Position numbers and translations under genes: made by a program. A DNA stretch of 64,000 nucleotides from Escherichia coli. GTDB taxonomy: Bacteria; Pseudomonadota; Gammaproteobacteria; Enterobacterales; Enterobacteriaceae. The stretch lies in assembly GCF_003018115.1 (NCBI RefSeq), contig NZ_CP027457.1; one strand, given 5' to 3'. Below the pieces are notes generated by a model. The model saw only the letters and a list, made by a program, of their open reading frames with translations. It was not told the origin of the DNA and ran no database searches. Shown in pieces: positions 2,459 to 17,131 of this stretch (the stretch's first letter is position 1; each line of letters begins with the position of its first letter).

Positions 2459-3219
2459 GAGTTCCCCGCGCCAGCGGGGATAAACCGAAAATTGGGACGC
2501 TAACTCATGGGTCTGGGTAGAGTTCCCCGCGCCAGCGGGGATAAACCGGGAAAAACGCCTGTGGTTGGGGCTGAACCAGGGAGTTCCCCGCGCCAGCGGG
2601 GATAAACCGTCGGCGCGCTCTCTGTAGAGCGGTTGTGTGATGAGTTCCCCGCGCCAGCGGGGATAAACCGTCGTCGGGTCCGACAGGGGTCGGTTGTTCG
2701 CCGAGTTCCCCGCGCCAGCGGGGATAAACCGGCTTAATAAACGAGGAGAATACCGATGTTTTTAAGTTCCCCGCGCCAGCGGGGATAAACCGTTCTTTTA
2801 ATGGCGTCAGGCCCATTACAGAGCGAGTTCCCCGCGCCAGCGGGGATAAACCGTTTTGACGATTATTCTAAAAGTGAAAATAGCAGAGTTCCCCGCGCCA
2901 GCGGGGATAAACCGCACGCTGGAGTGACCGGGTGGCAGAGCATGACGAGTTCCCCGCGCCAGCGGGGATAAACCGCCATTTCATCATGAACGGCGGAAAT
3001 ATCGTGGGAGTTCCCCGCGCCAGCGGGGATAAACCGGTCAGTTCCCGGTTGATATATATGATGAGCATGAGTTCCCCGCGCCAGCGGGGATAAACCGCGC
3101 AATGGCGCGGCGATTGCTCTCGAGATCAAGTGTTCCCCGCGCCAGCGGGGATAAACCGGGTACAAAAGAGGCCCCATTCTGGCAGGGCTCGAGTTCCCCG
3201 CGCCAGTGGGGATAAACCA
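2459..3219 (+). CRISPR. Type I-E CRISPR array, 13 repeats and 12 spacers (queE-ygcE side)
   Basis: 29-bp repeat GAGTTCCCCGCGCCAGCGGGGATAAACCG at 2459, 2520, 2581, 2642, 2703, 2764, 2825, 2886, 2947, 3008, 3069, 3130, 3191 with exact 61-bp period and 32-bp unique spacers. Repeat 6 starts AAG, repeat 12 starts GTG, terminal repeat 13 is degenerate (..CCAGTGGGGATAAACCA). Confidence 0.97.
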
Positions 3220-3856: not shown

Positions 3857-5335
3857 TTACGCATTCGACCAGCTCTGGATCGAATCCGCATTCCCCAATT
3901 CCCCATGCATCACTTCATACGATTTTTTCAGGATCACATCAGTATGTTTGGTTAGGGCTTTGAAAATACCTTTATTCATCGCGTCGTAGCGTTTGGCATT
4001 GCTCTCAACAGGCATAAAGATATCTTTCACGCGAACCATTTTGTCGACAGCCGTTGCGTAATCCGGGTATAGCCCCAGACCTACCGCCGTATTGATCGCT
4101 GCCCCCAGACTTGCACAACCGTTAATGGCGTTACGGCGTGCAGGAAGGTTGAACACGTCGGCAAAAATTTGCATAAATAGATCGCTGTTCGAACCGCCGC
4201 CAGTAATGATCACATGCTTTGCAAAGTGATTCATTTCATTACACATATTGTCGTAATTGTTCTTCAGCGTCAGCGCCACGCTTTCCAGTATCGAACGATA
4301 TATCCATGCGTAATCCATGCTGGAATCAAAGCCGATCATAATCCCACGTTTGTAGGGTTCCCACGGGTTGGTCAGCCAGTCCAGCACCGTCATCAGACCA
4401 TTACAGCCAGGCGGCACACAAGAAGCTTTTTTGTTGAGCAAATCTTCCGGTGAAAGATCCTGTGCTTTGGCATCCTGAATTAACGACTCGCCTAACATGT
4501 CGCGTAGCCAGCTCACCGTCCACATGCCTTTACGGATACCGTACCCTTCATACAGCAATGTTTCCGGAATAGAAGACATAATCGGCCAGTACGCCACCGG
4601 ATCTTTCGGCAGTGCTTTACCGTTCATCATCAGCGCGATGTAGGTGCCAAGAGAAATCACCGCCGTTTCATCATCCAGCAATCCGGCTCCCAGAGCTTCT
4701 ACCGGTTTATCACTGGTGGTACAAACAACCGGCAGCCCTGCCGGGAAATGTGTCGCCAGCGCGGCTTGAGGTGTGATCTGTCCAAGAACAGTGCCTGGCA
4801 TTTGCACATCAAACAGCATATGACGGGGGATATTAAACTTCTCCATGACTGCGGCATCTTCACTCCATGCCCAGCTCTTATAATCCACCGGCCACTGACC
4901 AAAATAGTTGGCGATATTGTCTTTAAACTCGCCGGTTAAGCGATGCGTCAGATAACCCGAAAAAGAGGTGACATATGCCACGTCAGGATTAGTGTGTTCG
5001 TAGGGACGCGTTACGCGTGCATCCTGCCAGCTAATCAATGGCGCAGCTGGCGTGCCATCGGCTTTCAATAACGCACGGCAGCAACGGATGGATCCCAGAC
5101 CAATACCGACAATATCTTCTTTATTCCCGGCAAACTGACTCATCAAATCGTGACCGGCAAAACATAATGATGCCCATAAATCGTCGTCAGGATGTTCTGC
5201 GGTATCGGCATCTGGCGTGTGCATCGGCTGCAATAAGCCTTTACCTTCGCAAACCACATTACCTTCCAGATCGTACATCACCACTTTTGTGCTCTGACTT
5301 CCGCCATCAATCCCTATGATGTATTTTTTCGACAT
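3857..5335 (-). CDS. ygcE: FGGY-family carbohydrate kinase
   Basis: 492 aa; N-terminus MSKKYIIGIDGGSQSTKVVMYD (FGGY kinase N-terminal motif); synteny. Confidence 0.88.
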   Translation of the reverse strand: MSKKYIIGIDGGSQSTKVVMYDLEGNVVCEGKGLLQPMHTPDADTAEHPDDDLWASLCFAGHDLMSQFAGNKEDIVGIGLGSIRCCRALLKADGTPAAPLISWQDARVTRPYEHTNPDVAYVTSFSGYLTHRLTGEFKDNIANYFGQWPVDYKSWAWSEDAAVMEKFNIPRHMLFDVQMPGTVLGQITPQAALATHFPAGLPVVCTTSDKPVEALGAGLLDDETAVISLGTYIALMMNGKALPKDPVAYWPIMSSIPETLLYEGYGIRKGMWTVSWLRDMLGESLIQDAKAQDLSPEDLLNKKASCVPPGCNGLMTVLDWLTNPWEPYKRGIMIGFDSSMDYAWIYRSILESVALTLKNNYDNMCNEMNHFAKHVIITGGGSNSDLFMQIFADVFNLPARRNAINGCASLGAAINTAVGLGLYPDYATAVDKMVRVKDIFMPVESNAKRYDAMNKGIFKALTKHTDVILKKSYEVMHGELGNADSIQSWSNA

Positions 5336-5361
5336 GATTTTTCTCCTGTAATTTTCCTGGC

Positions 5362-6639
5362 TTACTTGCTGCTAGCTATTGCGGGGGCGCTATCAGCAGT
5401 ACGAATTTTTTGGAACAGCAAAAAGGTAAAGACAATCACCATGGCAAGCGCCGCCATTCCCATCAGCCACATATTGCGGTAGGCTTCTGCTGCGGGCAGG
5501 GTGTCTTGCCAGTGGCCGATAATTGGGTAAACGAAGACATCCGGCAGGAATCCAATCACCGAACAAATACCTACCGTGGTGCCCATAATGTAAGACGGTG
5601 TTCTCGCTTCGCCAGGGCAGGCCCAGTACAGCCCGCGTGAGGCGTAACAGGTGAATCCCAGCAGTATAATCAGGCCAATCCCCATCGCGACCGATTGCGG
5701 GTTAGAGTTCGTGACGAGCAGGGCAGTTAACGCCAGCAGGCCGAGTACGGAAAGGATTTGGATCACGCGGGTAGGGGATTTCACTTTACTGTAGGTGGTG
5801 ATAATGCCGCCAAGTGGGCCGCACAGCGCGCGGAAGATTTTGTTGATCACAATCCCCATGTAGCTCGCCGCCACCAGCGACATGCCGTACATTTCGGTCA
5901 GATAGTTGGTGGAGTAACTCAGAATGGCGTAGATGGTGAAGACACCAAAAATCACCATGCTGCAATACCAGGTGGTGCTGATGCGCAAAACGGCCAGGAT
6001 GTCGCTAAGCTGGAATGACTGTTTTTCTTCGTTATTGGCACTGCGCAGGTTGTTGTTATCGCTAACAAAAAACCAGCACAGAATCCCCAACAAGATGTAA
6101 ACCACACTATAGATGATAATGACCGTTTTCAGGCTGGTGCTGTCATCCGGTGCAAAGCGAGAAAAGACCCACATGGTAAACACCGCCAGCGACATTACAC
6201 CGACGCCGCGCAGCCCTTCCATCCAGCCCATAATTTTCCCTTGCTCGCTATGATCGCCAAGCAACGAGGCGGCTTTAATCGACACCGACCACAGCATTAA
6301 AATCGTTGTTATCGCAAAGGCGACCTGAATACAGAGCATTACCCACAGCGGTGGATACGTTGCCATTAACAGACCCAGTAATCCGGTAATGATCATCGCG
6401 GAAGTAATCATTTTGCGGTGTGAAAATTTATCGGCAATAACGCCGCTGGGGGCATAAAGAATAATAGCCGCAATACCAAAGGTACTCATTATTAAACCTA
6501 TCTCGGTATTGCTGAATCCCATAAATTTCGCCATGGGAATTTGATAAATATAACGTAAATAAGCCAGGTCGAAACTAACGCCGCCGCTAAAACTAATTAT
6601 CGCGAGGGTTATCCAACGGCGATATGAGTTGTGTTGCAT
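5362..6639 (-). CDS. yqcE: MFS transporter
   Basis: 425 aa, multiple hydrophobic TM segments; 26 bp upstream of ygcE, likely co-transcribed. Confidence 0.85.
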   Translation of the reverse strand: MQHNSYRRWITLAIISFSGGVSFDLAYLRYIYQIPMAKFMGFSNTEIGLIMSTFGIAAIILYAPSGVIADKFSHRKMITSAMIITGLLGLLMATYPPLWVMLCIQVAFAITTILMLWSVSIKAASLLGDHSEQGKIMGWMEGLRGVGVMSLAVFTMWVFSRFAPDDSTSLKTVIIIYSVVYILLGILCWFFVSDNNNLRSANNEEKQSFQLSDILAVLRISTTWYCSMVIFGVFTIYAILSYSTNYLTEMYGMSLVAASYMGIVINKIFRALCGPLGGIITTYSKVKSPTRVIQILSVLGLLALTALLVTNSNPQSVAMGIGLIILLGFTCYASRGLYWACPGEARTPSYIMGTTVGICSVIGFLPDVFVYPIIGHWQDTLPAAEAYRNMWLMGMAALAMVIVFTFLLFQKIRTADSAPAIASSK

Positions 6640-6663
6640 ATCGTATTCCCATTTGTAATAGAC

Positions 6664-6711
6664 AAAAAAAAGAGAAAAGTAAGCCTCCCTTTCAGGTGGA
6701 TTACTTTTCTC
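6664..6711 (-). terminator. Intrinsic terminator in the yqcE 5' leader (minus strand)
   Basis: On minus strand: gagaaaagtaa - 18-nt loop - ttacttttctc followed by TTTTTTTT, ending about 25 nt before the yqcE ATG (6639). Confidence 0.55.
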
Positions 6712-6760
6712 AGGTCTCTAGTAATTGAAATAATAAATAACATGGAAAGCAGAGGTGTTG

Positions 6761-6776
6761 TGTGAGAGTAATCACG
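6761..6776. promoter_or_regulatory. CRP-like site (TGTGA-N6-TCACG), positioned for a class II promoter reading toward yqcE
   Basis: tgtgagagtaatcacg, 9/10 match to the CRP half-sites. Confidence 0.4.
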
Positions 6777-6817
6777 CTTCTGCTTTTTAAAATTATTTGA
6801 CAATACGAATATCACAC

Positions 6818-6833
6818 TGTGATTACGATCACA
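6818..6833. promoter_or_regulatory. Consensus CRP site (TGTGA-N6-TCACA) upstream of ygcW
   Basis: tgtgattacgatcaca, perfect match to both CRP half-sites; a TTGACA -35-like hexamer at 6797-6802. Confidence 0.55.
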
Positions 6834-6859
6834 TTAGCAGTTATGTCCTTATGCTAAAA

Positions 6860-6884
6860 ATTATCTCCAGTTACCAGAGATAAT
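6860..6884 (+). other. Leader RNA hairpin (8-bp stem, 9-nt loop) upstream of the ygcW leader terminator
   Basis: attatctc-cagttacca-gagataat perfect inverted repeat. Confidence 0.4.
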
Positions 6885-6890
6885 GAGAAA

Positions 6891-6933
6891 GGTAACTTCC
6901 CTCTCGCGGGGGAAGTTACCTTTCTTTTTTTTT
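6891..6933 (+). terminator. Intrinsic terminator in the ygcW 5' leader
   Basis: ggtaacttccc-tctcgcgg-gggaagttacc (11-bp perfect stem) followed by TTTCTTTTTTTTT, ending 25 nt before the ygcW ATG (6958). Confidence 0.75.
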
Positions 6934-6957
6934 GCCTTACGGAAATTGGAGCTAACT

Positions 6958-7743
6958 ATGTCAATCGAATCTCTCAATGCGTTCTCAATGGATTTTTTCT
7001 CCCTGAAAGGTAAAACAGCAATTGTTACCGGCGGGAATAGCGGTTTAGGTCAGGCATTTGCAATGGCGTTGGCCAAAGCTGGCGCAAATATTTTTATTCC
7101 AAGTTTTGTCAAAGATAACGGCGAAACAAAGGAAATGATTGAAAAACAGGGTGTTGAAGTGGACTTCATGCAGGTGGATATCACCGCAGAAGGCGCACCG
7201 CAGAAGATTATCGCTGCCTGCTGTGAGCGCTTCGGTACCGTCGATATTCTGGTTAACAATGCCGGTATTTGTAAGCTGAATAAGGTGCTGGATTTCGGTC
7301 GTGCCGACTGGGATCCAATGATTGATGTGAACCTGACCGCCGCATTCGAGTTAAGCTACGAAGCGGCAAAAATTATGATCCCGCAGAAAAGCGGTAAAAT
7401 TATTAATATCTGTTCATTGTTCTCTTACTTAGGTGGACAATGGTCACCTGCTTATTCAGCCACTAAACATGCTCTTGCCGGATTCACCAAATCCTATTGC
7501 GATGAATTAGGTCAATATAATATTCAGGTGAATGGTATTGCCCCGGGATATTACGCTACCGATATCACTCTGGCGACCCGTAGTAATCCAGAAACTAACC
7601 AGCGCGTTCTTGATCATATTCCGGCAAACCGTTGGGGCGATACTCAGGATTTAATGGGCGCAGCCGTATTCCTCGCAAGTCCGGCATCGAATTATGTCAA
7701 CGGGCATTTATTAGTGGTTGATGGCGGTTATTTAGTGCGCTAA
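6958..7743 (+). CDS. ygcW: Short-chain dehydrogenase/reductase (SDR)
   Basis: 261 aa from ATG 6958 (SD ggag upstream); TGGNSGLGQA Rossmann motif; ORF track start 6883 lies inside the leader terminator and is rejected. Confidence 0.88.
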   Translation: MSIESLNAFSMDFFSLKGKTAIVTGGNSGLGQAFAMALAKAGANIFIPSFVKDNGETKEMIEKQGVEVDFMQVDITAEGAPQKIIAACCERFGTVDILVNNAGICKLNKVLDFGRADWDPMIDVNLTAAFELSYEAAKIMIPQKSGKIINICSLFSYLGGQWSPAYSATKHALAGFTKSYCDELGQYNIQVNGIAPGYYATDITLATRSNPETNQRVLDHIPANRWGDTQDLMGAAVFLASPASNYVNGHLLVVDGGYLVR

Positions 7744-7812
7744 CCCATAACGGTGGTTTCTGTTTTCTCTTATTAATGATTATTCCATTTTTATTATCAG
7801 GAAGGAATTACT

Positions 7813-9267
7813 ATGTCTTTATCTCGCGCAGCGATTGTCGACCAGCTAAAGGAAATTGTTGGTGCAGATCGCGTAATTACCGATGAAACAGTATTAAAGA
7901 AGAACAGTATTGACCGTTTTCGTAAATTTCCGGATATTCATGGCATTTATACTTTGCCGATTCCGGCAGCGGTCGTAAAACTCGGTTCCACAGAGCAAGT
8001 ATCCCGTGTGCTGAATTTTATGAATGCGCACAAAATTAACGGTGTGCCGCGTACCGGTGCTTCCGCCACCGAAGGTGGGCTGGAAACTGTTGTAGAAAAC
8101 TCGGTGGTGCTCGACGGTTCCGCCATGAATCAAATCATTAATATTGATATTGAGAATATGCAGGCGACGGCGCAATGTGGCGTTCCGCTGGAGGTGCTGG
8201 AAAACGCGTTGCGTGAAAAAGGTTACACCACGGGGCATTCTCCGCAGTCAAAGCCGCTGGCGCAGATGGGCGGCCTGGTAGCAACCCGCAGTATCGGGCA
8301 GTTCTCCACACTCTACGGCGCAATCGAAGATATGGTCGTTGGTCTGGAAGCAGTATTGGCTGATGGCACCGTGACACGTATTAAAAACGTGCCACGCCGC
8401 GCGGCTGGCCCGGACATTCGTCACATCATCATCGGCAACGAAGGTGCATTGTGCTATATCACTGAAGTAACAGTGAAAATCTTTAAATTCACCCCGGAAA
8501 ACAACCTCTTCTACGGCTATATCCTGGAAGACATGAAAACCGGCTTCAACATCCTGCGTGAAATCATGGTGGAAGGGTATCGTCCGTCGATCGCTCGTTT
8601 GTATGACGTTGAAGATGGCACCCAACACTTCACCCATTTTGCCGACGGAAAATGCGTGCTGATCTTTATGGCTGAAGGTAACCCTCGCATTGCGAAGGCG
8701 ACGGGCGAAGGGATTGCGGAAATCGTTGCCCGCTACCCGCAATGCCAGCGCGTGGACAGCAAGCTGATCGAAACCTGGTTTAACAACCTGAACTGGGGAC
8801 CGGATAAAGTGGCTGCCGAACGTGTGCAGATCCTCAAAACCGGCAACATGGGCTTTACCACCGAAGTGTCCGGCTGCTGGAGCTGCATCCACGAAATCTA
8901 CGAAAGTGTTATTAACCGTATTCGTACCGAGTTCCCGCACGCCGACGACATCACTATGCTGGGCGGTCACTCCTCTCATAGCTATCAGAACGGCACCAAC
9001 ATGTACTTCGTCTACGACTACAACGTTGTCGACTGTAAGCCGGAAGAGGAAATCGACAAGTACCACAATCCGCTCAACAAAATCATTTGCGAAGAAACCA
9101 TTCGCCTCGGTGGTTCGATGGTGCACCACCACGGTATCGGTAAACATCGCGTTCACTGGAGCAAACTGGAACACGGCAGCGCGTGGGCGTTGCTGGAAGG
9201 GCTGAAAAAGCAATTCGATCCTAACGGCATTATGAACGCGGGTACTATCTATCCGATTGAAAAATAA
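7813..9267 (+). CDS. ygcU: FAD-linked oxidase (alkyl-DHAP synthase-like)
   Basis: 484 aa; synteny and size. Confidence 0.85.
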   Translation: MSLSRAAIVDQLKEIVGADRVITDETVLKKNSIDRFRKFPDIHGIYTLPIPAAVVKLGSTEQVSRVLNFMNAHKINGVPRTGASATEGGLETVVENSVVLDGSAMNQIINIDIENMQATAQCGVPLEVLENALREKGYTTGHSPQSKPLAQMGGLVATRSIGQFSTLYGAIEDMVVGLEAVLADGTVTRIKNVPRRAAGPDIRHIIIGNEGALCYITEVTVKIFKFTPENNLFYGYILEDMKTGFNILREIMVEGYRPSIARLYDVEDGTQHFTHFADGKCVLIFMAEGNPRIAKATGEGIAEIVARYPQCQRVDSKLIETWFNNLNWGPDKVAAERVQILKTGNMGFTTEVSGCWSCIHEIYESVINRIRTEFPHADDITMLGGHSSHSYQNGTNMYFVYDYNVVDCKPEEEIDKYHNPLNKIICEETIRLGGSMVHHHGIGKHRVHWSKLEHGSAWALLEGLKKQFDPNGIMNAGTIYPIEK

Positions 9268-9273
9268 TGTGTC

Positions 9274-9338
9274 AGGCAGCGTCCCGTGATGACGGGGCGT
9301 TGCCTTTTCGGCTTCTCAGGTGAGAAGCCGTTCTTATT
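9274..9338 (+). terminator. Tandem hairpins between ygcU and ygcS; the second is a terminator-like hairpin 23 nt before the ygcS start
   Basis: Hairpin 1 ggcagcgtcccg-tgatga-cggggcgttgcc (two G-U pairs) then CUUUU; hairpin 2 cggcttctc-aggt-gagaagccg then TTCTTATT. Confidence 0.5.
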
Positions 9339-9360
9339 ACCGGACAATGAAGGGGTAAAG

Positions 9361-10698
9361 ATGAACACTTCACCGGTGCGAATGGATGATTTACCGCTTA
9401 ACCGTTTTCACTGTCGAATTGCTGCGCTCACTTTCGGCGCACACCTGACCGACGGTTATGTTCTCGGCGTCATTGGTTACGCCATTATTCAACTTACGCC
9501 CGCCATGCAACTGACGCCGTTTATGGCGGGAATGATCGGCGGCTCGGCGCTCCTTGGTTTGTTTCTTGGCAGCCTGGTTCTTGGGTGGATCTCCGACCAT
9601 ATTGGTCGGCAAAAAATCTTCACCTTCAGCTTTTTGCTGATTACGCTCGCTTCGTTCTTGCAATTTTTTGCCACCACGCCAGAGCATCTTATTGGGCTGC
9701 GCATTTTGATCGGCATTGGGCTGGGAGGCGATTACTCAGTCGGTCACACCTTGCTGGCTGAATTTTCCCCGCGCCGCCATCGCGGTGTTTTGCTGGGCGC
9801 ATTCAGCGTGGTGTGGACCGTAGGCTATGTGCTGGCAAGTATTGCCGGACATCACTTTATTTCCGAAAACCCGGAGGCCTGGCGCTGGCTACTGGCATCG
9901 GCAGCTCTGCCCGCGTTGTTGATTACGTTATTACGCTGGGGAACGCCAGAATCGCCACGCTGGCTACTGCGCCAGGGGCGTTTTGCAGAAGCTCACGCTA
10001 TCGTGCATCGCTATTTTGGTCCCCATGTTTTACTGGGCGATGAAGTGGTAACGGCGACCCATAAACACATCAAAACCTTGTTCTCTTCGCGTTACTGGCG
10101 GCGCACGGCGTTTAACAGCGTCTTCTTTGTCTGCCTCGTAATCCCATGGTTTGTGATTTATACCTGGCTGCCAACTATCGCCCAGACTATTGGTCTGGAA
10201 GATGCGCTGACTGCCAGCCTGATGCTTAATGCGTTGTTAATTGTGGGCGCGCTGCTGGGATTAGTTCTGACGCACCTGCTGGCACATCGCAAATTTTTGC
10301 TGGGAAGTTTTTTGCTGCTGGCGGCAACGCTGGTAGTAATGGCCTGTTTGCCTTCCGGCAGTTCATTAACGCTGCTGCTTTTTGTTCTCTTCAGCACCAC
10401 CATTTCGGCAGTCAGTAATCTGGTGGGCATTTTGCCTGCGGAAAGTTTTCCTACTGACATTCGCTCGCTGGGCGTCGGTTTTGCCACCGCCATGAGTCGA
10501 CTTGGCGCGGCGGTAAGTACTGGCCTGCTGCCGTGGGTGCTGGCGCAGTGGGGAATGCAAGTCACCTTATTGCTCCTGGCGACAGTGTTGTTGGTTGGTT
10601 TTGTTGTGACCTGGCTATGGGCACCAGAAACCAAAGCCCTCCCGCTGGTGGCGGCGGGAAATGTAGGAGGTGCGAATGAACATTCTGTTAGCGTTTAA
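9361..10698 (+). CDS. ygcS: MFS transporter
   Basis: 445 aa from ATG 9361 (MNTSPVRMDD...); ORF track start 9286 rejected. Confidence 0.85.
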   Translation: MNTSPVRMDDLPLNRFHCRIAALTFGAHLTDGYVLGVIGYAIIQLTPAMQLTPFMAGMIGGSALLGLFLGSLVLGWISDHIGRQKIFTFSFLLITLASFLQFFATTPEHLIGLRILIGIGLGGDYSVGHTLLAEFSPRRHRGVLLGAFSVVWTVGYVLASIAGHHFISENPEAWRWLLASAALPALLITLLRWGTPESPRWLLRQGRFAEAHAIVHRYFGPHVLLGDEVVTATHKHIKTLFSSRYWRRTAFNSVFFVCLVIPWFVIYTWLPTIAQTIGLEDALTASLMLNALLIVGALLGLVLTHLLAHRKFLLGSFLLLAATLVVMACLPSGSSLTLLLFVLFSTTISAVSNLVGILPAESFPTDIRSLGVGFATAMSRLGAAVSTGLLPWVLAQWGMQVTLLLLATVLLVGFVVTWLWAPETKALPLVAAGNVGGANEHSVSV

Positions 10699-11455
10699 AG
10701 CCGAACCGGATGCCGGAATGCTGGCGGAAAAAGAGTGGCGGGCGGCGGCTCAGGGTAATAGCGGACCGGATATTTCGCTACTGCGAAGTTTACTCGGTGC
10801 TGATGAACAGGCTGCCGCCGCGCTGCTGTTGGCGCAGAGAAAAAACGGTACGCCGATGTCTTTAACCGCGTTGAGCATGGGGGATGAACGGGCGTTGCAC
10901 TGGCTGCGCTATCTCATGGCTCTTGGGTTTGAGGAAGCTGTATTGCTGGAGACGGCGGCAGATCTGCGCTTTGCGCCGGAATTTGTCGCTCGCCATATTG
11001 CCGAATGGCAGCGTCAGAATCCGCTGGATCTGATAATTACCGGCTGCCAAAGCAGCGAAGGGCAGAATGGGCAAACGCCATTTTTGCTGGCGGAAATGCT
11101 GGGCTGGCCCTGCTTCACCCAGGTGGAGCGTTTCACTCTCGACGCGCTGTTTATCACCCTCGAACAGCGTACTGAACATGGGTTGCGTTGTTGCCGGGTT
11201 CGCTTGCCTGCGGTGATTGCCGTGCGTCAGTGCGGTGAAGTGGCCTTGCCAGTACCGGGAATGCGCCAGCGAATGGCTGCGGGGAAAGCAGAAATTATCC
11301 GTAAAACTGTTGCTGCCGAAATGCCAGCGATGCAGTGTCTGCAACTGGCAAGAGCAGAGCAACGACGCGGAGCGACGCTGATTGATGGGCAAACGGTAGC
11401 AGAAAAAGCTCAAAAGCTATGGCAGGACTATTTACGCCAAAGGATGCAGCCATGA
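10676..11455 (+). CDS. ygcR: Electron-transfer flavoprotein beta subunit (FixA-like)
   Basis: 259 aa from ATG 10676 with SD aggagg; overlaps the ygcS stop. Confidence 0.85.
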   Translation: MNILLAFKAEPDAGMLAEKEWRAAAQGNSGPDISLLRSLLGADEQAAAALLLAQRKNGTPMSLTALSMGDERALHWLRYLMALGFEEAVLLETAADLRFAPEFVARHIAEWQRQNPLDLIITGCQSSEGQNGQTPFLLAEMLGWPCFTQVERFTLDALFITLEQRTEHGLRCCRVRLPAVIAVRQCGEVALPVPGMRQRMAAGKAEIIRKTVAAEMPAMQCLQLARAEQRRGATLIDGQTVAEKAQKLWQDYLRQRMQP

Positions 11456-12312
11456 ATATCGCAATTGTGACAATAAATCAGGAGAATGCCGCAATAGCAA
11501 GCTGGCTGGCGGCGCAGGATTTCAGCGGTTGTACCCTGGCGCACTGGCAGATTGAACCTCAGCCTGTAGTGGCGGAACAGGTGCTGGATGCGTTGGTGGA
11601 ACAGTGGCAGCGAACGCCTGCGGACGTTGTTCTCTTTCCGCCGGGAACGTTTGGCGATGAACTGTCGACCCGGCTGGCCTGGCGTTTACATGGTGCAAGC
11701 ATCTGCCAGGTGACTTCGTTAGATATTCCAACCGTAAGCGTGCGCAAATCCCACTGGGGAAATGCGCTAACGGCGACGCTGCAAACAGAAAAACGCCCGC
11801 TATGCCTTTCCCAGGCGCGTCAGGCGGGAGCAGCGAAAAACGCCACGTTGCCCTCTGGAATGCAACAACTGAACATTGTCCCGGGTGCGCTTCCCGACTG
11901 GCTGGTTAGCACAGAGGATCTGAAAAATGTTACTCGCGACCCATTAGCTGAGGCCAGACGGGTGCTGGTGGTGGGGCAGGGCGGAGAGGCAGATAACCAG
12001 GAAATCGCTATGCTGGCAGAAAAGCTGGGAGCCGAAGTGGGCTACAGTCGGGCGCGAGTGATGAACGGTGGCGTTGATGCTGAAAAAGTGATTGGTATTT
12101 CCGGACATCTGCTGGCACCTGAGGTGTGTATTGTTGTTGGCGCTTCTGGCGCAGCAGCGTTAATGGCGGGCGTACGCAATAGCAAGTTTGTGGTGGCGAT
12201 TAATCATGACGCCAGCGCTGCGGTATTTTCACAGGTAGATGTTGGCGTGGTTGATGACTGGAAAGTGGTGCTGGAGGCACTGGTGACAAACATTCACGCA
12301 GATTGCCAATAA
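11452..12312 (+). CDS. ygcQ: Electron-transfer flavoprotein alpha subunit (FixB-like)
   Basis: 286 aa; ATGA overlap with the ygcR stop. Confidence 0.85.
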   Translation: MNIAIVTINQENAAIASWLAAQDFSGCTLAHWQIEPQPVVAEQVLDALVEQWQRTPADVVLFPPGTFGDELSTRLAWRLHGASICQVTSLDIPTVSVRKSHWGNALTATLQTEKRPLCLSQARQAGAAKNATLPSGMQQLNIVPGALPDWLVSTEDLKNVTRDPLAEARRVLVVGQGGEADNQEIAMLAEKLGAEVGYSRARVMNGGVDAEKVIGISGHLLAPEVCIVVGASGAAALMAGVRNSKFVVAINHDASAAVFSQVDVGVVDDWKVVLEALVTNIHADCQ

Positions 12313-12317
12313 CGTGT

Positions 12318-12428
12318 TGCCGGATGATCCTGCCTACGGTTCTGGCCTGGGGACTTGTAGGCCTGATAAGACGCGTCAAGCGTCGCATCAGGCGCTGAAT
12401 GTCGGATGTGGCGTGCGGCCTACAAATC
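12318..12428. repeat. REP/BIME repetitive extragenic palindromes
   Basis: gccggatgatcctgcctacgg ... gtaggcctgataagacgcg...cgcatcaggcgc ... ggatgtggcgtgcggcctac: REP-type palindromic units between convergent ygcQ and ygcP. Confidence 0.75.
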
Positions 12429-12459
12429 AAACCAAATTCAATTGGTTACGATTATCCCG

Positions 12460-13035
12460 TCAAAGTAATTTTTTCGCTAACGTCCAGACCCCGGTATTCG
12501 TGGTGGAAAGCGCCACGACACCCGCGTTAATCGCATTACGCGCATCTTCTTCATCGCACACCAGCCCACCGGCAATCAGCGGTTGGCGGATTTTCTCTGT
12601 CACCCAGCCCAGCACTTTGGGCATACAGCCTGGCAGGATCTCAATACAATCCGGATTCGATTGCGCAACTTGCTTATCAATGTTGTGAAACGAAATTGAA
12701 TCAACAATAAACAGGCGATGAATACAGAAAAAACCTTCCGCTCTTGCCGCTTTCAACATTGAGGCTTTGGTACTGATAATGCCGTCCGCCTCGGTCACCA
12801 GTTTCAAAAACTGAATCACGACTTCTTTATTTGACGCGCCTTCCAGCAAATCAACATGAATAAAAGCATATTTCCCGGCGTTCTTAATCTTTTTAACGAT
12901 ATTACTGATGGTGCAGATATTGCCGTACAACACGGAAATAAACTGGCATTCAGAGTCGATTGCCAGTTGCAGGCTGGCATTATCTTTAACGGCAGCAATC
13001 ACCGGATTCTGGCGGAGCAGGTGTAAGAGGGGCAT
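12460..13035 (-). CDS. ygcP: GlpP-family (glycerol-3-phosphate-responsive type) transcription antiterminator
   Basis: 191 aa; size and family recalled for K-12 YgcP; synteny. Confidence 0.8.
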   Translation of the reverse strand: MPLLHLLRQNPVIAAVKDNASLQLAIDSECQFISVLYGNICTISNIVKKIKNAGKYAFIHVDLLEGASNKEVVIQFLKLVTEADGIISTKASMLKAARAEGFFCIHRLFIVDSISFHNIDKQVAQSNPDCIEILPGCMPKVLGWVTEKIRQPLIAGGLVCDEEDARNAINAGVVALSTTNTGVWTLAKKLL

Positions 13036-13051
13036 AAATTATCCTTATTAT

Positions 13052-13312
13052 TTATCCAAAGCGGTAGGTGATGCCGAATCCGGAAGGCGGATAGCGCCAC
13101 TGTTGTAGTGTGGATTCGTCGCACAGCAAACGGCAGGTGCCACACTCCAGGCAGCCGTGATAATCAACGCGTAAGTCACCTTCCGGTGTGAGCGAAAAAA
13201 GACCTGCCGGACAGGCGTTAATCAACCGTTGTACCATCTGACGCTCAACGGAGTCAGCCGGAACAATGTGCGGCGCATCAGCAACGCGCCAGAGATTATG
13301 GGCTACAGACAT
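13052..13312 (-). CDS. ygcO: Ferredoxin-like protein (FixX-like)
   Basis: 86 aa from the internal Met (MSVAHNLWRV...); CxxC...CxxC motifs. Confidence 0.8.
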   Translation of the reverse strand: MSVAHNLWRVADAPHIVPADSVERQMVQRLINACPAGLFSLTPEGDLRVDYHGCLECGTCRLLCDESTLQQWRYPPSGFGITYRFG

Positions 13313-14574
13313 CGCAGACTCCTGATAACATCGCCCGCCAGATGCCACAGGCCATGACGACGTAAATGACGCCAGAATAACTGGCGCAGCGGTGGAACAG
13401 GTTTATCACCCTGATCCCATAAATCGCGGGAAATATCCTGCATTAACGCAGGCCACGCCCGATACCAGCCAGGGCGTTGCAAAAGCGCCGGAACATGCTG
13501 ATAACGTTGTAGAACATCCCATAGCAGGCTGCGCTCTACGTTGTGATGATAAAGCGCAAACAGATTTTGCGGCTCGCGGTGCTGGCAGGCGCTTATCAGC
13601 GTTTGTGCCGCCGCCTGCGCGCCAGTCAGCGCCATATCCATGCCGCGCACGGAAATTCCGGTATTGACGCAACTGCGCAACGCATCGCCCACCAGCAGCC
13701 AGCCGTTACCGGCGTATTGCACCGGCATACTGTGCAAGCCACCTTCTGGCACCAGATGCGCACCATACTCCAGTGATTCCGTGTTTTTGATAAGCGGGCG
13801 CACTGCCGGATGCGCTTTAAAGCGAGTCAGCAGCTCGCTTGCCGGAACACGACTTTGCGTAAGGGAAGAGAGCGGGCAAACAATCCCTAACGAGAGCGTT
13901 TGTTGATTAGTATAAAGAAATGCGCCGCCGGGTAAGTCATCACAGATCCTGCCGCTGAACAGCAACGCTGCGCCTTCGTTTTTCTCCAGATGAAAACGTT
14001 CTTCAATAGCGGATGTTTCCAGCGACAGCACTTCTTTGATCCCCAACGCCATCGCTTCGCCAGCAGGACGAGTCACTAATCCGTGACGTTCAGCCAGGAC
14101 GCTGTTGGCACCTTCTGCCAGCACCACATAACGGGCGCGGAGAATATCGTCACCACAAATGACACCACACACCCTGCCGTTTTCTTCATACAGTGCATCC
14201 ACCGTCGCTCCGGGGATGCATTCGACACCTTCTTTTTCGGCTTCGGCAACCAGCCACGGATCGAACCGTGCACGTAATACACTCCAGGATTCACCGCCGG
14301 GCTGTAAGCTGGAAAACGTCGTTACGCCATCGGGCGTTAACAGGGAAAGGCTTTCGTGAGTGATGCGTCGTTCAAGAGGCGCGGTCAGATGAAACTGAGG
14401 GAGGAGTTCCGCGAGTGCATGGGTATATAACCGCCCGCCGGAAAGATTTTTGCTGCCGGGGATTTCAGCGCGTTCCAGTAACAAAACGGATAAACCCGCT
14501 CGCGCGCAGCGTAACGCGCAAGCGGTGCCTGCAATACCGGCACCAATAATAATAATGTCGCAGTCGTCTTCCAT
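13303..14574 (-). CDS. ygcN: FAD-dependent oxidoreductase (FixC / ETF-quinone oxidoreductase-like)
   Basis: 423 aa from Met MEDDCDIIIIGAGIAG (FAD-binding GxGxxG). Confidence 0.85.
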   Translation of the reverse strand: MEDDCDIIIIGAGIAGTACALRCARAGLSVLLLERAEIPGSKNLSGGRLYTHALAELLPQFHLTAPLERRITHESLSLLTPDGVTTFSSLQPGGESWSVLRARFDPWLVAEAEKEGVECIPGATVDALYEENGRVCGVICGDDILRARYVVLAEGANSVLAERHGLVTRPAGEAMALGIKEVLSLETSAIEERFHLEKNEGAALLFSGRICDDLPGGAFLYTNQQTLSLGIVCPLSSLTQSRVPASELLTRFKAHPAVRPLIKNTESLEYGAHLVPEGGLHSMPVQYAGNGWLLVGDALRSCVNTGISVRGMDMALTGAQAAAQTLISACQHREPQNLFALYHHNVERSLLWDVLQRYQHVPALLQRPGWYRAWPALMQDISRDLWDQGDKPVPPLRQLFWRHLRRHGLWHLAGDVIRSLRCL

Positions 14575-14651
14575 GTCATGCCCCAGATATCCAGAACACA
14601 ACACCCTAACATAGCGTTACTTAAGGGAAATTGACCGCCGACACACTCTTA

Positions 14652-15017
14652 TCATTCGCCGCGATAGATACAACCTGCGGTACAGGTTTCTTTTACCATC
14701 ACCGCACTTAACAGCGGCACAACGGGTTTAACCTGATCCCAAATCCATTTTGCTAAAACCTCGCTGGTTGGGTTTTCCAGACCTGGAATATCATTGAGAT
14801 AATGGTGATCGAGGCGCTCGTAGGTTGGTTTAAACGCCGCTTTTAGTTCAGCGAAATCGATAATCCAGCCCGTATGCGGATCGACTTCCCCGGTAATTTC
14901 CAGTCGCACCATAAAGGAATGCCCGTGCAGGCGACCACATTTATGCCCTTCCGGGACGTGTGGTAAGCGGTGAGCGGCTTCGAAGGTGAAATCTTTAAAT
15001 AACGTGGTGGACATCAT
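14652..15017 (-). CDS. queD: 6-carboxy-5,6,7,8-tetrahydropterin synthase
   Basis: 121 aa from [35 protein letters not shown] (His/Cys catalytic motifs). Confidence 0.9.
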
Positions 15018-15331
15018 AATTTCTCTACAGGACGATAAAACCGCCGTAGAGTACCGGAAAGGCTGTTTTTTCGCATTATCTAAAACGACTTTGTTGCGCA
15101 AAATCGCTGATTTATCTTAATGATTGGCTAAATTCATTTGTTTTTCATTGGGTTGGTTAATCTATTTTGTTGTTAAAGACTATTGCTAAAACAGGTTAGT
15201 CGATTTGGTTATTAGTTATCGCTATCCCGTCTTTAATCCACACCATTTGCCCCGTTAACCTTACCTTCTCTTCTGTTTTTGGGCGCTGACAGGGCGCAGA
15301 AACAGCTTTGCTTACTGGAACATAACGACGC

Positions 15332-17131
15332 ATGACGACACAGGTCCCACCTTCCGCGTTGCTTCCGCTGAACCCGGAGCAACTGGCACGCCTTCAGGCG
15401 GCCACGACCGATTTAACTCCCACCCAGCTTGCCTGGGTTTCTGGCTATTTCTGGGGCGTGCTCAATCAGCAGCCTGCTGCGCTTGCAGCGACGCCAGCGC
15501 CAGCCGCAGAAATGCCGGGTATAACTATTATCTCTGCTTCGCAAACCGGCAATGCGCGCCGGGTTGCTGAAGCATTACGCGATGATTTATTGACGGCAAA
15601 ACTGAACGTTAAGCTGGTGAACGCGGGCGACTATAAATTCAAACAAATCGCCAGCGAAAAACTGCTTATCGTGGTGACGTCAACGCAAGGGGAAGGGGAA
15701 CCGCCGGAAGAAGCCGTCGCGCTGCATAAGTTCCTGTTCTCCAAAAAAGCGCCAAAGCTGGAAAACACCGCGTTTGCCGTGTTTAGCCTCGGCGATAGCT
15801 CTTATGAATTTTTCTGCCAGTCCGGGAAAGATTTCGACAGCAAGCTGGCGGAACTGGGCGGTGAACGCCTGCTCGACCGTGTCGATGCCGATGTTGAATA
15901 CCAGGCTGCTGCCAGCGAGTGGCGCGCCCGCGTGGTTGATGCGCTTAAATCGCGTGCGCCTGTCGCGGCACCTTCGCAATCCGTCGCTACTGGCGCGGTA
16001 AATGAAATCCACACCAGCCCGTACAGCAAAGACGCGCCACTGGTGGCTAGCCTCTCTGTTAACCAGAAAATTACCGGGCGTAACTCTGAAAAAGACGTTC
16101 GCCATATCGAAATTGACTTAGGTGACTCGGGCCTGCGTTACCAGCCGGGTGACGCGCTGGGCGTCTGGTATCAGAACGATCCGGCACTGGTGAAAGAACT
16201 TGTCGAACTGCTGTGGCTGACAGGCGATGAACCTGTCACCGTCGAGGGCAAAACGTTGCCTCTGAACGAAGCGCTACAGTGGCACTTCGAACTGACCGTC
16301 AACACCGCCAACATTGTTGAGAATTACGCCACGCTTACCCGCAGTGAAACACTGCTGCCGCTGGTGGGCGATAAAGCGAAGTTACAGCATTACGCCGCGA
16401 CGACGCCGATTGTTGACATGGTGCGTTTCTCCCCGGCACAGCTTGATGCCGAAGCGCTAATTAATCTGCTGCGCCCGCTGACGCCGCGTCTGTATTCCAT
16501 CGCCTCCTCGCAGGCGGAAGTCGAGAACGAAGTACACGTCACCGTTGGTGTGGTGCGTTACGACGTGGAAGGCCGCGCCCGTGCCGGTGGTGCCTCCAGC
16601 TTCCTCGCGGACCGCGTGGAAGAAGAGGGCGAACTCCGCGTATTTATCGAACATAACGATAACTTCCGCCTGCCCGCTAACCCGGAAACCCCGGTGATTA
16701 TGATTGGCCCAGGCACCGGTATCGCGCCGTTCCGCGCCTTTATGCAGCAACGTGCTGCCGATGAAGCACCGGGTAAAAACTGGCTGTTCTTTGGCAACCC
16801 GCATTTTACGGAAGATTTCCTCTACCAGGTGGAGTGGCAGCGCTACGTCAAAGAGGGCGTGCTGACACGTATCGATCTCGCCTGGTCGCGCGATCAAAAA
16901 GAAAAAGTTTACGTACAAGACAAACTACGCGAACAGGGCGCGGAGCTGTGGCGCTGGATCAATGACGGTGCCCACATTTATGTCTGCGGCGACGCTAATC
17001 ACATGGCGAAAGACGTTGAGCAGGCACTTCTGGAAGTGATTGCCGAATTTGGTGGCATGGACACCGAAGCGGCGGATGAATTTTTAAGTGAGCTGCGCGT
17101 AGAGCGCCGTTATCAGCGAGATGTCTACTAA
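15332..17131 (+). CDS. cysJ: Sulfite reductase [NADPH] flavoprotein alpha subunit
   Basis: 599 aa; flavodoxin and FAD/NADPH domains; cysJ-cysI-cysH order. Confidence 0.95.

Follow-up and report, generated by a model that had tools for sequence, protein, structure and literature searches.

Palindromic sequences of the REP/BIME and ERIC class lie between cistrons and stabilise the upstream segments of the messages in which they are found. Partial Rho-independent terminators have also been described in intergenic positions, where they are treated as setters of expression ratios within an operon; in a quantitative study, a terminator 8–9 bp from a stop codon was almost fully repressed by the ribosome, and it reached full strength beyond about 30 bp (PMC4824070). 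In Bacillus subtilis, glpD, glpFK and glpTQ have leader terminators under GlpP control; the GlpP targets described in PMC9604022 and PMC10573289 are 5' leaders.

Here we analyze the junction between ygcU and ygcS in a 64,000-nucleotide stretch of Escherichia coli DNA (RefSeq assembly GCF_003018115.1, contig NZ_CP027457.1), referred to below as the window. The window holds the Escherichia ygc cluster in an orientation reversed with respect to K-12, and shares 99.3% identity with E. coli F9792 and about 97% with most E. coli. The genes are arranged as ygcE and yqcE on the minus strand; ygcW, ygcU, ygcS, ygcR and ygcQ on the plus strand; and then ygcP, ygcO and ygcN on the minus strand. No account of how the ygcU-ygcS junction is regulated was found in the literature on ygcP, ygcU and ygcS.

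The junction carries two hairpins, H1 and H2, and shares features with each of the described systems. As in the partial intergenic terminators of PMC4824070, H2 is a G+C-rich hairpin with a U-rich tail just past a stop codon, the downstream cistron seemingly has no room for a promoter, stepped-down expression of the distal genes would be expected, and the efficiency of H2 is expected to vary with its distance from the stop codon; in Escherichia, unlike in those systems, an extra hairpin separates the stop codon from the putative terminator. With the GlpP-type leaders, and with the ygcW and yqcE leaders of the same cluster, the junction shares a nearby GlpP-family gene and a hairpin and U-tract placed about 25–30 nt before a start codon. 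Unlike all of these leaders it is intercistronic, and it has neither the invariant motif nor a competing antiterminator helix; its sequence is unrelated to those of the ygcW and yqcE leaders. Like the REP, BIME and ERIC palindromes, H1 and H2 are stable hairpins between cistrons, and in other genera their position is taken by ERIC-type elements; unlike these palindromes, both hairpins are single-copy in E. coli and H2 has a U-tract.

Results

Layout of the ygcU-ygcS junction

The product of ygcU is a protein of 484 amino acids with FAD_binding_4 and FAD-oxidase_C domains. Its stop codon, read from the sequence as TAA at 9265–9267 on the plus strand, is separated by a spacer of 93 nt from the ygcS start codon at 9361–9363. 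The two hairpins that a sequence-only reading had placed here are both present. H1 (9274–9305, plus strand) begins 6 nt past the ygcU stop and has the sequence AGGCAGCGUCCCGU-GAUG-ACGGGGCGUUGCCU; the 12-bp core with two G-U pairs described for it was correct, and ViennaRNA extends this by two pairs to a 14-bp stem with a GAUG loop. The stem is followed by a short U run (9305–9308, plus strand; UUUU and then C), with T at just four of the eight bases past the stem, which makes a poor terminator tail. H2 (9309–9330, plus strand), with the sequence CGGCUUCUC-AGGU-GAGAAGCCG, consists of a 9-bp stem containing six G-C pairs and an AGGU loop, and runs into the U-rich but interrupted tail UUCUUAUU (9331–9338, plus strand; U at six of eight bases). 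From the H2 stem to the ygcS ATG is 30 nt, and from its tail 22 nt, a slight correction of the 23 nt first given. The ygcS Shine-Dalgarno sequence, GAAGGGG at 9349–9355 on the plus strand, is kept in the junction alignments A1 and A3.

A 103-nt stretch across the junction folds with an energy of -47.6 kcal/mol, compared with -27.6 ± 3.4 kcal/mol in 200 shuffles (z = -5.9), none of which was as stable. The fold energies in the window are -27 kcal/mol for H1 (ViennaRNA minimum free energy) and -15.6 kcal/mol for H2. A terminator consensus scan ranked H2 third among the terminator-like sites across 12 kb, against a high background of 27 sites where 15 were expected.

H2 is a conserved RNA structure

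For comparison we used 67 loci from a YgcU scan, with one genome per species, and placed ygcW, ygcU, ygcS and ygcP in each. H2 is found at the ygcU-ygcS junction throughout those Enterobacterales with the gene order of the window, including Escherichia, Citrobacter, Klebsiella, Raoultella, Pluralibacter, Yokenella, Cedecea and Buttiauxella. In an alignment of 33 junction sequences from more than 20 genera, the H2 stem is paired in 93.4% of cells, and compensatory changes on both sides of the stem are seen at eight of the nine pairs. None of 500 shuffles reached these pairing and covariation values, and slid controls pair in 38–58% of cells. Across the 27 non-Escherichia loci, the H2 stem matches that of the window with a mean identity of 0.79, versus 0.47 at the 4-fold sites of ygcU. 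On this comparative evidence H2 is an RNA structure under selection, with its stem under purifying selection.

RNAalifold applied to the junction alignment returned H2 alone, with no conserved structure over the Shine-Dalgarno sequence or the start codon. A third, weak hairpin in the single-sequence fold had no support in the alignment and was set aside. A search of 4000–16000 with Rfam 15 gave no match at the junction at E <= 1, and two unrelated weak matches elsewhere.

The description of H2 as terminator-like was borne out by its anatomy and evolution: it has a canonical G+C-rich stem, a small 4-nt loop, a U-rich tail and compensatory changes, and it lies where a terminator is expected, after a stop codon. 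The tails of its orthologues have 4–7 U per 8 nt, and several are uninterrupted runs of 6–8 U; in many others the U-tract is short or interrupted, which fits partial termination. H2 occurs at a median of one place per E. coli genome and once in the window, and H1 at one place per genome across 5,092 E. coli genomes and likewise once in the window. As both hairpins are single-copy, membership of a repeat family was rejected for each of them.

H2 is tied to the 3' end of ygcU

At the non-Escherichia junctions the distance from the ygcU stop to the H2 stem is 5–11 nt in most loci, and that from the stem to the ygcS ATG is 19–32 nt, within a spacer of 52–70 nt (a range that leaves out four loci with an ERIC-type insert). 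In several species where ygcS is found elsewhere, a terminator hairpin is still present 3' of ygcU, and the ygcS of Pantoea has no such hairpin upstream of it. The hairpin thus stays with ygcU when ygcS moves, which implies that H2 is part of the ygcU 3' end rather than a special device of ygcS. We conclude from this distribution that H2 is the ancestral hairpin of the junction.

A scan of 9000–9360 found no promoter-like site. There is no elevation of synonymous-site conservation over the final 50 codons of ygcU, nor any sign there of an embedded promoter or of a pairing partner for the hairpins. Given that the spacer was judged too short for a promoter and that the scan found none, read-through of H2 is the only visible route to ygcS, and the ygcS, ygcR and ygcQ genes (ygcSRQ) probably depend on it. 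H2 had been proposed as a separate gate on these genes; the hairpin instead tracks ygcU, and it would gate ygcSRQ in the weaker sense that their transcription probably needs read-through. The highest synonymous conservation within ygcU lies at codons 392–417 (window about 8986–9060), with a value of 0.83 versus a mean of 0.69 (sd 0.05) across 28 genera.

The ygcW and yqcE leaders carry a different element

Two leader motifs with the arrangement of a terminator and antiterminator are present in the window, at 6865–6944 on the plus strand for ygcW and at 6730–6654 on the minus strand for yqcE. The motif consists of TTACYAGAGA, a gap of N3-5, GAGAAARGUAAC, a variable hairpin top, UUACUUUUCUC, and then U8-9. 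Across Enterobacterales each locus has two copies, and weaker matches are seen in Firmicutes loci that have a YgcP homologue (L053, L060, L065, L067 and L068); the motif has no counterpart in Rfam. The terminator helix is paired in 99.6% of alignment cells. An upstream helix, formed by A[G/A]UUAC[C/U] with [G/A]GUAA[C/U]U, is paired in 93.7% of cells, and two of its pairs switch, between G-C and A-U or between U-A and C-G. Covariation links column 28 of the alignment to both columns 11 and 62, as predicted for mutually exclusive terminator and antiterminator helices. The same cluster contains ygcP, whose product matches PF04309 at 210 bits, and the leader motif is likely to be the RNA target of this GlpP-family protein.

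RNA 3' ends have been mapped in both leaders of K-12. Term-seq places one at -38 of ygcW, with 40,640 reads and an intrinsic score of 15.8, which is not Rho-dependent, and another at -36 of yqcE (PMC7815308); both are confirmed by the TRS data of PMC10687069. Two CRP-type sites lie between the divergent yqcE and ygcW leaders, TGTGAGAGTAATCACG at 6761–6776 and TGTGATTACGATCACA at 6818–6833, the latter with its centre about 41 nt upstream of the start of the ygcW leader motif; both are in keeping with published CRP predictions for yqcE and ygcW.

The junction had been counted as the third hairpin of this type in the cluster, and a link to ygcP had been implied. A covariance model of the leaders (R1) detects those of ygcW and yqcE in the window at 85 and 83 bits; run over the whole window with its filters off, it gives nothing on the plus strand at 9268–9360, and no more than 9.4 bits (E = 6.5) on the minus strand there. 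Over 66 related loci, all of the strong matches to the model are leaders and none is near the junction, and the same is true of the 96 matches of a regular expression for the motif over all loci. Neither RNAalifold nor the conservation of the ygcU 3' end revealed a conserved antiterminator-type alternative helix or an upstream partner at the junction. The junction also differs in position, lying between two cistrons, 6–41 nt past the ygcU stop, rather than in a 5' leader behind a promoter. With the motif confined to the two leaders, a YgcP-type attenuator at the junction was rejected, and on these sequence comparisons the junction hairpins and the leader attenuators are objects of different kinds. 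The comparison with the ygcW and yqcE hairpins thus extends to a start-proximal, terminator-like hairpin and stops short of the leader motif and the antiterminator helix, and the implied link to ygcP finds no counterpart in the form of the motif, a conserved alternative pairing partner or an embedded promoter.

H1 is confined to Escherichia

In contrast to H2, H1 is absent from all 27 of the non-Escherichia junctions and present in every intact Escherichia junction examined. Across ten intact junctions from Escherichia, K-12 included, its energy ranges from -20 to -28 kcal/mol. From this distribution H1 is a later, genus-specific insertion between the ygcU stop and H2. The substitutions in its stem either keep the pair by way of a wobble or break it, with no compensatory change, and two Escherichia lineages have a U-U mismatch. 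Its divergence from the window in the divergent Escherichia lineages is about 6%, by manual count, versus about 18% at the 4-fold sites of ygcU. In E. coli NT1N34 the 3' arm of H1, immediately past ygcU, is interrupted by an IS1 element (L070 330–630).

Inserts resembling ERIC elements by eye, and varied in length, are found between the ygcU stop and H2 in Klebsiella spallanzanii, Raoultella terrigena, Enterobacter sp. 10-1 and Citrobacter koseri (L006 7456–7640; L055 7456–7628; L010 7456–7708; L007 3689–3799). They occupy the same spot as H1 in Escherichia, which looks like an insertion hotspot.

The sequence-only reading held that H1 alone would terminate the ygcU transcript. We consider this unlikely, given the poor U-tract of H1 and its start just 6 nt past the stop codon; the terminator of PMC4824070 was almost fully repressed by the ribosome at about that distance. 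The division of labor proposed for the two hairpins is closer to the reverse of what we find, with H2 ancestral and H1 restricted to Escherichia.

Two readings of the H1 sequence leave the hairpin itself without a function. H1 may be a relic that evolves neutrally, left for instance by an ERIC-like insertion at the hotspot; we regard this as possible, at less than even chances. Its restriction to a single genus, the presence of ERIC-type inserts at exactly the same position in other genera, its lack of compensatory changes, the U-U mismatch in two lineages and its disruption by IS1 in one strain all point in this direction. There is also weak similarity between H1 and the right ends of the Klebsiella and C. 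koseri inserts, with scores reached by 1 and 4 of 500 shuffles respectively, so that H1 is a possible remnant of such an insertion; its similarity to the other two ERIC-type inserts is not significant. The low divergence of H1 relative to the 4-fold sites of ygcU argues against neutrality, as does the energy of its stem, about -20 kcal/mol or lower in every one of the divergent Escherichia lineages. The other reading takes the region as coding sequence, in which the hairpins would be incidental to a YgcS extended at its N-terminus. PGAP annotation of the E. coli RefSeq genomes examined gives ygcS a 470-amino-acid form that begins at ATG 9289, in the loop of H1, and the frame is open from GTG 9286 or ATG 9289 into ygcS. 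The conserved start is ATG 9361 on the plus strand, which gives a protein of 445 amino acids as curated for K-12 (2897870). It is to this downstream codon that the strong Shine-Dalgarno sequence and the N-terminus MNTSPVRMDD, common to several genera, belong. The extension is not conserved: it is longer than the whole non-Escherichia spacer of 52–70 nt, which has no start codon for it, and between Escherichia lineages the codons TCA GGT GAG change non-synonymously to TCA ACC GGG. We therefore reject the extension as very improbable, and the start at ATG 9289 is probably a systematic misannotation.

Discussion

Consideration of the anatomy of the junction, its conservation and its place in the gene string leads us to favor, with modest confidence, the reading that H2 is a partial intrinsic terminator within an operon that doubles as a protective 3' hairpin, and that ygcSRQ is transcribed by read-through only. 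Transcription would start at a CRP-type promoter and pass the ygcW leader attenuator before entering ygcW and ygcU. H2 with its U-rich tail would then act as a Rho-independent terminator inside the ygcW-ygcU-ygcS-ygcR-ygcQ string, ending a fraction of the transcripts after ygcU; left at their 3' ends, it would probably also shield the ygcWU message. As the 30 nt between the H2 stem and the ygcS ATG are judged too short for a promoter, message for ygcS, ygcR and ygcQ would come only from polymerases that read through H2. The predicted outcome is a ratio of ygcWU to ygcSRQ in which the transporter and electron-transfer-flavoprotein genes are lowered relative to the two dehydrogenase genes. H2 would on this account be an ordinary further example of an intra-operon intrinsic terminator.

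The main predictable effect of H1 is to shift H2 from about 8 nt to 41 nt past the ygcU stop. At 41 nt H2 would lie beyond the reach of a ribosome terminating on ygcU, and termination may consequently depend less on translation in Escherichia than at Citrobacter-type junctions; the absence of covariation support for H1 counts against giving it a role in the mechanism. An extension of this idea makes H2 a second, conditional checkpoint, suppressed by the ygcU ribosome in most genera and uncoupled from it by H1 in Escherichia. We think this unlikely. If it were true, ygcSRQ would be transcribed only from actively translated ygcWU messages in most genera, and Escherichia would either have changed the dosing of its transporter and electron-transfer genes or need some factor for read-through, possibly YgcP acting without the leader motif.

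The partial terminator has to be weighed against two other accounts of H2, one that adds regulation to it and one that removes termination. In the former, H2, with or without H1, is itself a regulated gate, with read-through permitted by YgcP, by another factor or by a polymerase modified at the leader, so that ygcSRQ would need a second permission beyond the leader attenuator. The GlpP-family antiterminator gene in the cluster, the true terminator/antiterminator attenuators in both of its leaders and the apparent lack of a promoter for ygcSRQ are all in keeping with such a gate. So are the strong-looking terminators of some orthologues, with 6–8 uninterrupted U, which if efficient would leave little ygcSRQ expression unless termination were relieved; these orthologues also count against the partial terminator. 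The invariant motif TTACYAGAGA...GAGAAARGUAA is missing from the junction by regular expression over all loci and by covariance model in the window and the 66 loci, there is no conserved alternative helix or upstream partner, the hairpin goes with ygcU rather than ygcS where the gene order differs, and the GlpP targets of PMC9604022 and PMC10573289 are leaders; together these make a regulated gate improbable. The other account, that the hairpins act only in stability or processing, supposes no appreciable termination; a hairpin would be a barrier to 3' exonucleases or a 5' cap left after cleavage, and the half-lives of ygcWU and ygcSRQ would differ. This accommodates a conserved structure whose U-tract has interruptions in the window and in several orthologues is poor, as well as the long, stable stem of H1 with no real U-tract; the ERIC-type inserts that Klebsiella, Raoultella, Enterobacter and C. 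koseri carry at this position could do the same job. Most orthologues nevertheless keep a U-rich tract directly 3' of the H2 stem, which a pure stability hairpin would not need, and we consider this account rather unlikely in its exclusive form. Termination and stabilization by H2 are not exclusive of one another, and the partial terminator that we prefer includes both.

The published maps of RNA 3' ends that we examined, including K-12 Term-seq (PMC7815308) and TRS (PMC10687069), contain no end at the junction; they have no ygcU or ygcS entries and list the leader 3' ends only, which counts against H2 as a partial terminator. The ygc operon is silent in these datasets, with its transcripts shut off at the ygcW leader terminator, so the junction was probably never reached and the absence of an end there is weak evidence.

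Several points follow from this analysis. The nine-gene cluster is likely to be organized as a leader attenuator, ygcWU, a terminator and then ygcSRQ, with the last three genes probably expressed by read-through from ygcWU. The start of ygcS, placed by an automated pipeline in the loop of H1, is corrected. The Citrobacter-type junction, with its hairpin at about 8 nt, and the Escherichia junction, at 41 nt, form a natural pair for the tuning of termination by stop-codon distance. The conserved leader motif, which lies outside Rfam, is a by-product of more value than the junction terminator itself.

Two further features of the window were recorded. Between the convergent ygcQ and ygcP genes, a stretch at 12360–12433 on the minus strand weakly resembles naRNA4, with a score of 34 bits that falls short of the gathering score, and we take it to be a REP-type palindrome. 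The annotation of the closest E. coli genome includes a CRISPR array between queE and ygcE (L001 460–1220), corresponding to about 2459–3219 in the window.
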